Program-made: the position numbers and the translations under genes
Part shown: positions 60,912 through 64,000 of the stretch, one piece after another
Position numbering within the stretch: position 1 is the stretch's first letter
How the letters are laid out: every line of letters starts with the position of its first letter
The notes under the pieces: model-generated
Told to the model about the DNA's origin: nothing
The model's database searches: none
Seen by the model: the letters and a program-made list of their open reading frames with translations, nothing else
Assembly: GCA_965116875.1 (NCBI GenBank)
Contig: OZ220733.1
Location: 3,968,001-4,032,000 of the forward strand
Source of the DNA: Candidatus Latescibacterota bacterium
Lineage (GTDB): Bacteria > Latescibacterota > UBA2968 > GCA-2709665
Length of the DNA stretch: 64,000 nt
Direction of reading: 5' to 3'

Positions 60912-62258
60912 GTGACGTCGTTCAAGGCGTGGTTTCGATGTTTTAGAGGTTGCAGCGGCCGTTATCCCCTGACGCAGATCGTCTACGCGTGTCCGAAATG
61001 CGGCGGTTTGCTCGAGGTGCGCCACGATATGGAAGCGCTTCGCGACCGATCACCTGCGGACTGGCGTCGCCTGTTCGATCGGAGGTATATGCGCACGGAA
61101 TGGCCGTACGGCAGTTCCGTATGGGGCAAGAAGGAAATGGTATGCCCCGTTGTGGACGACAACAACGTCGTGTCGATGTACGAAGGGGGCAGCAATCTGT
61201 TCTGGGCCGAGCGTCTCGGCCGGGAGATCGGAGTCGAGGACCTGTGGGTCAAGCAGTGTGGAAACAGCCACACCGGTTCGTTCAAGGATCTGGGCATGAC
61301 GGTGCTGGTGTCGATGGTTCGGCAAATGGTCTTCGAAGGGCAGCGCATCCCCGCCGCCGCGTGCGCCTCGACCGGAGATACTTCCGCGGCTCTGGCGGCC
61401 TATTGCGCGCACGCCGGTATACAGGCGGTCGTGTTCCTGCCGCGGGACAAGGTTTCCACGGCCCAGCTGGTGCAGCCGATGGCCAACGGAGCGCTGGTAT
61501 TGAGTCTGGATACCGACTTCGACGGGTGCATGAAACTGGTTCAGGAGATATGCCACAGGGAGAATATCTACCTTGCCAATTCGATGAACTCACTTCGTGT
61601 AGAGGGGCAGAAGACCGTAAGCGTGGAATTGTTGCAGCAATTCGACTGGGAACTGCCGCAATGGATCGTAATTCCCGGGGGCAACCTGGGCAACGTCAGC
61701 GCCCTGGGAAAGGGCTTCAGCGAGTTGAAGGAAATGGGCCTTGTCGACCGTGTGCCACGAATCGCGGTTGCTCAGAGTGCCCGGGCAAATCCGCTCTACC
61801 GGAGTTTTCTCAACGATTTCGACGCATTTGAACCTCTCAAGGCGCAATCAACCCTGGCCAGCGCCATTCAGATCGGGGACCCGGTCAGTACCGAAAAGGC
61901 GATTATGACCCTCAAGAACATCGGTGGGGTTGTGGAGCAGGCGACCGATCAGGAACTGGCGGACGCTGCGGCGAGGGTGGATCGAACCGGGTTGTTTTCG
62001 TGCCCGCACACGGGCGTGGCCTTTGCCGCGCTCTTCAAACTGGTGGACCGCGGCGTCATCCGGAGCGATGAGCGGGTTGTGGTGATATCGACCGCCCACG
62101 GATTGAAGTTCGCCGATTTCAAGATCAGGTACCACCAGGCTGAACTCGGCGCATACGACGTGGACCCGAACCATGCGAATCTGCCCTTGCAGTTGCCGGC
62201 GGAATACGGCCGGGTCCGGGATCAGATCTTTCGGACGCTCGATTTGAACGGTGGTTGA
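60912..62258 (+). CDS. thrC: Threonine synthase, plant-like type
   Basis: [69 protein letters not shown]; start GTG 60912. Confidence 0.93.
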
Positions 62259-62283
62259 CAGCGGCGATGGATTTGGTTACATT
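62255..62283 (+). promoter_or_regulatory. Sigma70-type promoter for the riboswitch-CGS transcript
   Basis: TTGACA (62255-62260, overlapping the thrC stop), 17 nt, TACATT (62278-62283). Confidence 0.75.
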
Positions 62284-62299
62284 GATCGACCGGATTCAG

Positions 62300-62355
62300 T
62301 GTAGTGGTGATTTGAGGCATATTGCAGCCACTATAAAGAAATCGCTAAAAAGCTG
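62300..62355 (+). promoter_or_regulatory. SAM-II (SAM_alpha) riboswitch aptamer
   Basis: P1 TGTAGTGG (62300-62307) / CCACTATA (62328-62335) enclosing TGATTTGA..TTGCAG, then an A-rich linker and GCTAAAAAG, the SAM-II consensus layout; lies upstream of a methionine biosynthesis gene. Confidence 0.85.
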
Positions 62356-62392
62356 ATCACCCATACGATAGCTGGTCGCGTATTCAGGATCT

Positions 62393-62421
62393 CTGGGGCT
62401 TTTTGGCTTCAGTTTTTTTTT
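62393..62421 (+). terminator. Intrinsic terminator (attenuator) in the CGS leader
   Basis: CTGGGGCT-TTTT-GGCTTCAG stem with G-U pairs, followed by T9, ending 19 nt before the ATG. Confidence 0.75.
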
Positions 62422-62440
62422 GTTGTTTCCGGAGGATGCA

Positions 62441-63634
62441 ATGGCAGAGAAGCTATCGACGGATGGCGTCTGCAATTCTACCTGTGCCGTCCACGCGGGG
62501 GAAAACGGAGGGCATTGGGGGCATTCCCTTACGGTTCCGATCGCGCAGACGTCGACCTACGTTTTCGAAAACACCACAGCGGTGGACGATTTCGTGTCCG
62601 GGCGTTCGGCCCGACTCGATTACGGGCGCTACGGAAACCCGACGCAACAGATTGCCGAACGAAAACTGGCCGAACTGGAGGGTGCGGATTCGGCGCTGTT
62701 GTTTTCGTCCGGAATGAGCGCCGTGACGACGACCCTTCTGGGCATGCTGTCCACGGGTCACCACGCCGTGATTACCGACGACTGTTACAGGAAGACCGCA
62801 CAGTTCTGCGAGCAGATGCTGAGGAAGTTCGGCATCGACACGACTTTCGTGCCCGCAGGCGACTATGGAAGGCTGGAGTCGGCCATGCAGGAAAATACGA
62901 GAGTGGTGATTGCGGAGTCTCCAACCAACCCGCATCTGAATGTGATGGATCTCGAAAAGGTGGTCCCCATCGCCAAGGCGAAACGTGCGAAAGTCGTTAT
63001 TGACAGTACGTTTGCCACACCGTTCAACCAGCGTCCCCTGGAGTTCGGTGTCGATCTCGTCATTCACAGCGCGACCAAGTATCTGGGTGGGCATAACGAC
63101 CTCATCGCCGGCGCCGTTGCAGGATCCGAGCCGCTGGTTTCGGCCATAAAGGACTATCGTGGAATTCTGGGAGGCGTGATCGACCCACACTGCGCGTATC
63201 TGCTGATCAGAGGCATCAAGACGTTCCCGCTGAGGATGGTGCGTCAGAACGAGACCGCGCTGGCGCTTGCCCGTTTTCTGGAGGGGAACCCGGGGGTGCG
63301 GCAGGTTTACTATCCCGGTCTGGAGAGCCACCCGCACCACCGGGTTGCGCGGGAGCAGATGAGCGGGTACGGCGGCGTGGTGAGTTTCGATCTCAACGCG
63401 GACCTGGCAGGAACCATGGCATTCCTCGATCGCCTGGAGATTCCCTGTATTGGCGCAAGCCTGGGTGGGGTGGAGAGCATCGTCTCCCATCCGTCAACCA
63501 TTTCCTACTACGAAATGGAACGCGAAGACCGGATCGCCATCGGAATCAGCGACGAACTTGTACGTTATTCCGTTGGGGTCGAGGACGCCGAAGACCTGAT
63601 CGGCGACGTGGAAAGGGCGCTGGAGGGCGTATAA
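62441..63634 (+). CDS. metB: Cystathionine gamma-synthase, plant-like (Cys/Met PLP family)
   Basis: YGRYGNPT, FSSGMSA, DCYRKT, ESPTNP, DSTFATP, HSATKYLGGHND, SLGGVES; RBS GGAGG before ATG 62441. Confidence 0.85.
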   Translation: MAEKLSTDGVCNSTCAVHAGENGGHWGHSLTVPIAQTSTYVFENTTAVDDFVSGRSARLDYGRYGNPTQQIAERKLAELEGADSALLFSSGMSAVTTTLLGMLSTGHHAVITDDCYRKTAQFCEQMLRKFGIDTTFVPAGDYGRLESAMQENTRVVIAESPTNPHLNVMDLEKVVPIAKAKRAKVVIDSTFATPFNQRPLEFGVDLVIHSATKYLGGHNDLIAGAVAGSEPLVSAIKDYRGILGGVIDPHCAYLLIRGIKTFPLRMVRQNETALALARFLEGNPGVRQVYYPGLESHPHHRVAREQMSGYGGVVSFDLNADLAGTMAFLDRLEIPCIGASLGGVESIVSHPSTISYYEMEREDRIAIGISDELVRYSVGVEDAEDLIGDVERALEGV

Positions 63635-63678
63635 CGGAAAGGAGATAAGGAGACGCGATTCGCGTCGCGTCGCGGGGT

Positions 63679-64000
63679 ATGTTCGGTCCGTTTCTTGCAT
63701 TCGCGCTGCGCGCGCCACTGCAGGACGAGCGCTGGCGGCAAAAATTGCTGTTGGGCGGCTTGCTGTCCCTGCTGCCGAATCTGGCGCTGCTGCTTGGCGT
63801 CTTTATGGCATTGGGAAAGGTCTCCGGTATGCTCGCGCCGGTCGCGATCGTGTTCTTCGTTTTGCCGACTGTCGTTACCTGGGGATATGTCTATCGTGTC
63901 TTTGTCGACGCGTTAAACGGTCTGGAATTCCGACGCCTGCCCGAGTGGAACGACTGGCTGCGGTACGGTGCCGTTGGGGCCCGGCTTGGCGTAATCTACC
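63679..64000 (+). CDS. DUF4013-like membrane protein, truncated at the 3' end by the window edge
   Basis: Manual translation MFGPFLAFALRAPLQDERWRQKLLLGGLL..WGYVYRVF..LPEWNDW; open to the window end, so absent from the ORF track. Confidence 0.7.
   Translation, partial: MFGPFLAFALRAPLQDERWRQKLLLGGLLSLLPNLALLLGVFMALGKVSGMLAPVAIVFFVLPTVVTWGYVYRVFVDALNGLEFRRLPEWNDWLRYGAVGARLGVIY

Follow-up and report, generated by a model that had tools for sequence, protein, structure and literature searches.

A candidate transcriptional OFF riboswitch of the SAM-II class ahead of a methionine-biosynthesis gene in a Latescibacterota genome

Introduction

How does a SAM-II riboswitch control a gene when the Shine-Dalgarno (SD) sequence lies far beyond the aptamer? 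This question is raised by a stretch of 64,000 nucleotides (nt) from a Candidatus Latescibacterota bacterium (assembly GCA_965116875.1, contig OZ220733.1, positions 3,968,001 to 4,032,000), here called the window. In it, an aptamer of the SAM-II class, whose ligand is S-adenosylmethionine (SAM), stands in front of a gene for a pyridoxal phosphate (PLP)-dependent enzyme of Cys/Met metabolism. An earlier reading made from the letters alone (the sequence-only reading) had proposed that SAM locks the 3' strand of the aptamer in a pseudoknot, so that a terminator forms, and that without SAM the same strand builds an antiterminator that allows read-through. Here, this mechanism was followed up by computation, and it proved the one best supported by the comparative evidence, while it is still a prediction. 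We put the probability at about 0.8 that the element is a SAM-II transcriptional OFF switch on a MetB/MetZ-type methionine-biosynthesis gene of this genome. All positions are window coordinates, and the elements were read directly on the sequence of 62100-64000.

Results and discussion

Identification of the SAM-II aptamer

When the full window was compared with Rfam by cmscan under gathering thresholds, the only match was RF00521 (SAM_alpha), on the plus strand. The sequence-only reading had placed a SAM-II aptamer at 62300-62355 and had named the SAM_alpha model as a check. The match extends from 62294 to 62368, covers model positions 1-79 of 79, and scores 43.9 bits (E value, 1.3e-06), above the gathering score of 36. 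The cmscan alignment is identical to the consensus at GAUUUG, UUGCAGCCAC, and UCGCUAAA, and the columns of these motifs are invariant or nearly so across 32 relatives. When the whole genome was searched, one RF00521 copy was found, the same match as in the window. A SAM-I search of this genome gave no match, and neither did an RF00521 search of 14 control genomes. The match ends 72 nt upstream of the ATG of the enzyme gene. Judged by these features, the element is a genuine member of the SAM-II riboswitch class and is predicted to bind SAM.

A promoter had also been noticed ahead of the aptamer. The promoter scan found TTGACA-17 nt-TACATT at 62255-62283, with matches at 10 of 12 positions (1 site vs 0.4 ± 0.7 in shuffled sequences). 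Near-consensus promoters a few bases ahead of the P1 hairpin are mentioned in the available text of Corbino et al. Of 60 distinct leaders from relatives, 55 carry TTGAC[AT] at a distance of 27-100 nt ahead of the aptamer core.

Pairing of the aptamer strand with the terminator

The terminator and the pairing on which the proposed switch depends are both present where they had been seen. The terminator hairpin has 8 pairs, 4 of them G-C, with the loop UUUU at 62401-62404 and an energy of -9.1 kcal/mol when folded alone; it is followed by T9. The 3' strand of the aptamer, 62344-62354, pairs with 62397-62407 over 11 bp, comprising 9 Watson-Crick and 2 G-U pairs (U346-G405 and U354-G397), with an energy of -13.1 kcal/mol (RNAduplex). 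Since 62397-62407 spans the inner 5' arm, the entire loop, and the first three 3'-arm bases of the terminator, antiterminator and terminator are mutually exclusive. In addition, GCU at 62352-62354 has two conserved partners, GGC at 62316-62318 in the aptamer loop and GGC at 62397-62399 in the terminator arm. Because the same GCU is shared by the pseudoknot and the antiterminator, these structures exclude each other as well. The features of the leader are listed in Table 1; the pseudoknot pairs in it were assigned from the H-type topology and not from a solved crystal structure.

Table 1. Features of the riboswitch leader and the gene behind it (window coordinates)
Feature	Positions	Strand	Details
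Sigma-70-like promoter-like site	62255-62283	+	-35 TTGACA 62255-62260; 17-nt spacer; -10 TACATT 62278-62283
SAM-II aptamer (Rfam RF00521, SAM_alpha)	62294-62368	+	Rfam cmscan
P1 hairpin	62302-62333	+	5' arm 62302-62308; 3' arm 62327-62333
Pseudoknot 5' strands within P1 loop	GAUUUG 62309-62314; GGC 62316-62318	+	
Aptamer 3' tail	62338-62354	+	62338-62343 with 62309-62314, proximal pseudoknot helix
Distal pseudoknot helix	GCU 62352-62354 with GGC 62316-62318	+	
Switching strand GCUAAAAAGCU	62344-62354	+	
Linker	62355-62392	+	CCCA 62360-62363 can pair with UGGG 62394-62397 in minimum free energy (MFE) folds and would extend the antiterminator
Intrinsic terminator	62393-62421	+	Hairpin 62393-62412, then U9 tract 62413-62421
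Antiterminator 3' strand	62397-62407	+	Inside the terminator hairpin
Shine-Dalgarno GGAGG	62431-62435	+	5 nt before ATG; outside both alternative structures
Regulated gene	62441-63634	+	397 amino acids (aa); PLP-dependent Cys/Met-metabolism enzyme, cystathionine gamma-synthase/sulfhydrylase/gamma-lyase family

The pairing was compared with what the rest of the genome offers. A scan of its 5,453,092 bases gave 761 sites with a terminator-like hairpin and a T tract. An ungapped run of more than 9 nt complementary to the 11-nt aptamer strand occurs in one of the 761 hairpins, the one at 62393, where the run is 11; the next-best run is 9, in five hairpins. Duplex energy in this comparison was -14.7 kcal/mol here vs -10.0 kcal/mol for the runner-up. 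TTTTT is found anywhere in 18 of the 761 hairpins and GCTTTTT[AG]G in one, again the one at 62393. In the 3-kb loci of relatives, runs of at least 9 were found in 14 of 23 distinct leader hairpins vs 0 of 9 hairpins elsewhere (maximum, 5). The complementarity of the aptamer strand and the terminator is more than chance.

Within the linker, the motif GCGUAUUCAGG (62379-62389) is kept in six of the seven alignment leaders of the window's genus, and the seventh (L009) differs at the tenth base; the rest of the linker varies within the genus, unlike this motif. The motif may serve for pausing or as a spacer hairpin. Prefix folds allow an extra helix between UCAGU in the 5' flank (62296-62300) and CUGA just past the switching strand.

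Conservation and covariation in relatives

Of 41 related genomes, 40 carry RF00521, with 9/9 genera represented, as do 60 of 151 genomes sampled from the phylum. By family, the counts were 17/18, 30/30, 10/64, and 2/2 in families f1 to f4, respectively, and 0/36 in the ten other families. The 64 loci collected gave 60 distinct leaders, of which 59 were evaluable for the partner of the tail; the leader of L112 is truncated by a contig end, and L114 and L135 fell outside the leader-extraction pattern. In 56 of the 59 leaders, the stretch that forms the best duplex with the 12-nt tail within 140 nt has a run of at least 4 T in the next 25 nt, and CTTTTT[AG]G is present in 45 of the 59.

Covariation, which had been named as a further check, was assessed in an alignment of 32 of 52 distinct trimmed leaders from 14 genera and 4 families. 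The alignment omits near-duplicates within genera and seven leaders whose tail pairs best with a second hairpin (L115, L117, L127, L134, L136, L138, and L144). Compensatory changes were found in P1, in both pseudoknot helices, and in the terminator stem. P1 is paired in 93.8% of cells, with changes on both sides at 2 of 7 pairs and 4 pairs invariant. The pseudoknot helices 62309-62314/62338-62343 and 62316-62318/62352-62354 are paired in 84.0% and 95.8% of cells, respectively (slid controls, 25-52%), and 3 of their 9 pairs change on both sides. The terminator stem has 84.7% of its cells paired and shows two-sided changes at 6 of its 8 pairs. For the antiterminator, 88.9% of cells pair vs 32-54% when the partner is slid by 1-3 columns, a comparison whose structure was derived from the first sequence and which is thereby biased against the slid versions. 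Of the 11 antiterminator pairs, four show one-sided and 2 show two-sided variation; the low number of two-sided changes follows from the 5' strand being fixed by the aptamer.

The terminator stems differ by genus, for example, CUGGGGC/GGCUUCAG, CCGGGC/GUCCGG, and CCCGGGC/GCCCGGG. The loop of five U and the flanking G-C pairs are retained while the stems differ, and a plain terminator has no need of a U5 loop. Linker length varies between 4 and about 70 nt, and the part of the leader from P1 up to the U tract is as short as about 77 nt (L122). In sister-genus and other leaders (e.g., L010, L133, L136, L115, and L144), the aptamer and the SD are separated by two terminator-like hairpins in a row, and each of the two often has a GCUUUU(U)(G/A)G loop that is complementary to the aptamer strand. 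The second hairpin is the better partner in L115, L136, and L144.

Proposed mechanism and folding energetics

Transcription would start a few bases past the -10 hexamer, and P1 would be the first element to fold. With abundant SAM, the tail (62338-62354) would dock on the P1 loop as an H-type pseudoknot held by the ligand. The strand 62344-62354 would then be sequestered, the hairpin 62393-62412 would close ahead of the U9 tract, and RNA polymerase would stop near 62415-62421, upstream of the SD and the ATG. With scarce SAM, the free strand would pair with 62397-62407 once that stretch exits the polymerase, possibly extended by 62360-62363 with 62394-62397, and the terminator would be kept open so that the gene is transcribed. 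In the order of synthesis, the antiterminator 3' strand would be made before the terminator 3' arm is complete. This mechanism is the expected one for the SAM-II class.

Folding of the window's own leader is consistent with these two states. The MFE structure of the full leader (-32.7 kcal/mol) consists of P1 and the extended antiterminator, and the ensemble pair probability is 0.74 for the antiterminator vs 0.23-0.26 for the terminator. The terminator hairpin formed when the P1 loop and the tail were kept from pairing, in imitation of the SAM-bound pseudoknot. When folded with a trimmed U tract, all 12 distinct leaders of the window's genus favored the antiterminator state over the tail-free state (-1.1 to -7.9 kcal/mol).

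Several results weigh against the transcriptional switch. Across relatives with the U tract included, the MFE structure contains the antiterminator in 9 of 52 distinct leaders and the terminator hairpin in 41. When the U tract is trimmed off, 23 of the 52 leaders favor the antiterminator state over the tail-free state (median, +1.0 kcal/mol), and all 13 distinct leaders of the largest sister genus disfavor it, by 0.2-2.4 kcal/mol. The RNAalifold consensus is P1 plus the terminator hairpin, not the antiterminator. The few two-sided changes in the antiterminator and the bias of its slid comparison count on the same side. The terminator scan by itself was not significant (1 found vs 0.6 ± 1.1 in shuffled sequences), and the fold energy of 62294-62445 was ordinary (z, -0.20; 78 of 200 shuffles at least as stable). 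Two RNA libraries, both as contigs, contained only 0.05 of the sampled words. One gave a single contig of 167 nt over 62301-62423, with 8 differences and adapter-like letters on both sides, and the other gave a 4136-nt contig of a relative spanning 62200-63200. Such contigs show no starts, ends, or strand and may derive from DNA, so they say nothing on termination. Since equilibrium folding is mixed across relatives, the switch, if real, must work co-transcriptionally, that is, under kinetic control.

Alternative explanations

The mixed energetics could also mean that the terminator is a constitutive or leaky attenuator uncoupled from SAM, with the aptamer acting through RNA stability, release of a small RNA that contains the riboswitch, or translation at a distance. 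The terminator is indeed the equilibrium structure in many relatives. A comparable picture is given in the available text of Scheuer et al. 2022 (PMC9373788) for Sinorhizobium (S.) meliloti metA, where the terminator behind SAM-II could not be linked to a SAM-II-driven antiterminator, a further point against the switch proposed here. An uncoupled terminator would not, however, account for an 11-bp antiterminator that is unique among 761 genome hairpins and is kept over 14 genera despite changing terminator stems, nor for the U5 loop, which has no role in a plain terminator and is retained in 45 of 59 leaders. We therefore regard it as unlikely, though it is the strongest of the alternatives. 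The complementarity might also stem from base composition, with an A-rich tail opposite a U-rich terminator, and have no regulatory role; this reading is already disfavored and seems very improbable to us. The pairing core is A5 with U5, any run of A can pair with U-rich RNA, and the overall fold energy is not unusual; yet U5 is present in only 18 of the 761 terminator-like hairpins, no other run reaches 10, and the flanking G-C pairs are kept, while the slid controls drop to 32-54%.

Control might instead be mainly translational or dual, with SAM altering ribosome access to the SD at 62431-62435 and the terminator being auxiliary. The best-studied SAM-II riboswitch, that of metX, buries the SD in its pseudoknot, and one relative has a second SAM-II aptamer followed by an anti-SD/SD hairpin (L114, described below). 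In the window, the SD lies 77 nt downstream of 62354, close to the 75 nt of the sequence-only reading, and is outside both alternative structures; the ATG is at 62441. Moreover, no conserved anti-SD sequence was seen in the leaders of the window's genus. Mainly translational or dual control is improbable in our view, and a transcriptional OFF switch is the reading that we prefer.

Regulated gene and genomic context

The protein encoded by the regulated gene had its best profile match to NF006097 (cystathionine gamma-synthase family), at 392.3 bits with a cut-off of 600. All 25 models listed for it were below their cut-offs, and the enzyme was therefore assigned to the family only. The nearest named records for this enzyme are Candidatus Latescibacterota/Latescibacteria metagenome-assembled genomes (MAGs), with 91, 78, 76, 76, 76, and 69% identity. 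An Rfam scan of 40 of 80 homologue loci found SAM-II just upstream in 6, all labeled Latescibacter-, SAM-I upstream in 6 (Chloroflexota and one Myxococcales MAG), and neither class in 28. The SAM-I matches (L039, L040, L048, L051, L057, and L070; 59.6-90.9 bits) lie directly ahead of the enzyme homologue. As read from these matches, the same gene is under different predicted SAM riboswitch classes in different phyla. The presence of SAM-I or SAM-II upstream of homologues supports a probable role of the enzyme in SAM-regulated methionine synthesis.

The gene upstream of the riboswitch encodes a threonine synthase (thrC-like; TIGR00260, 218.5 bits vs a cut-off of 167.1). Its TGA stop (62256-62258) falls within the -35 hexamer of the promoter-like site ahead of the riboswitch. 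Between this gene and the riboswitch, the terminator scan found no terminator-like site, so thrC read-through would also meet the riboswitch. After the regulated gene, an open reading frame at 63679-63999 (107 aa) runs off the window; its product has a membrane-protein-like composition and gave no NCBIfam match at an E value of 1e-5.

In the loci of six relatives (L006, L004, L125, L138, L142, and L143), a second SAM-II aptamer with a terminator lies ahead of a candidate threonine dehydrogenase gene. The products of these genes begin like L-threonine 3-dehydrogenase, and the one protein scanned (L006:321-1409, minus strand) matched NF003808 with 402 bits vs 380. The window's own genome has no second SAM-II copy ahead of a threonine dehydrogenase gene. 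A SAM switch on threonine breakdown could link the SAM level to one-carbon supply. No literature on a SAM riboswitch of threonine dehydrogenase was found, judged by title.

Another relative (L114:1500-1755, plus strand) carries SAM-II in tandem. The first aptamer is followed by a hairpin and a T tract, and the second by a C-rich stretch able to pair with the SD just before the ATG.

Comparison with known SAM-II systems

The sequence-only reading had called terminator-linked SAM-II cases uncommon. This does not hold: papers from 2005, 2007, and 2022 call the arrangement frequent in the text available to us. The closest counterpart is S. meliloti metZ with its small RNA RZ, in which a Rho-independent terminator comes after SAM-II, ahead of a methionine gene of the sulfhydrylase type. 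According to the accessible portions of PMC9373788, metZ was predicted to be under SAM-II termination control, likewise as an OFF switch; in vivo, the terminated RNA increased and the read-through mRNA decreased at high SAM. The two differ in taxon (Alphaproteobacteria vs Latescibacterota) and in that the SAM response was measured in S. meliloti, whereas the window's element is known from its sequence.

Excerpts of Sherlock et al. 2022 (PMC9481103) describe 120 SAM-II/SAM-V tandems in which SAM-II always precedes a terminator and 44 SAM-II doublets, some with mixed terminator/ribosome-binding site platforms. In these tandems, as in the window, an intrinsic terminator stem comes after the SAM-II aptamer, and the mixed doublets match L114; in contrast to tandems and doublets, the window has a single aptamer and a single terminator. 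The metX SAM-II riboswitch has the same P1, H-type pseudoknot, and ligand-stabilized 3' strand. There, the 3' strand is the SD, and control is translational; in the window, it is the antiterminator strand.

The preQ1-I riboswitch of Bacillus subtilis queC has a small aptamer with an H-type pseudoknot, and the 3' tail of this aptamer is also part of an antiterminator in competition with a terminator. It resembles the window's element in wiring only; ligand and family differ.

Significance

The window's element is a well-preserved but ordinary example of SAM-II in an uncultured phylum, with an arrangement already described for the class, and it leaves the knowledge of the class unchanged. No literature on SAM-II in Latescibacterota was found, judged by title or the start of the abstract, and the taxon, being outside Proteobacteria, is a modest extension of the SAM-II range.

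A bolder view of the phylum may be put forward tentatively, and we lean somewhat against it. In this proposal, the Latescibacterota platform would have arisen by mimicry and would be purely kinetic, the leaders would count as some of the most compact transcriptional riboswitches in nature, and threonine dehydrogenase would also be switched in some relatives. The terminator 5' arm and loop (GGC-U5-GG) may copy the aptamer's internal pseudoknot strand (GGC-AUAUU-G). If so, the ligand would choose between two look-alike partners for one 11-nt strand, and the leaders would be a clean system to show in vitro for the first time how an H-type pseudoknot aptamer drives termination. Control of threonine dehydrogenase would tie the SAM level to threonine breakdown as a one-carbon source.

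According to the available text of papers on the class, the mode of expression control by SAM-II was long untested, and reviews, as far as their accessible text goes, present the metX riboswitch as a model of direct SD occlusion. The short leaders described here would therefore be convenient templates for a first in vitro test of SAM-II termination control. The preferred reading, a transcriptional OFF switch, adds a set of candidate transcriptional SAM-II riboswitches from an uncultured phylum beyond Proteobacteria and Bacteroidetes, with a predicted antiterminator that is specified to the single base and has comparative support.

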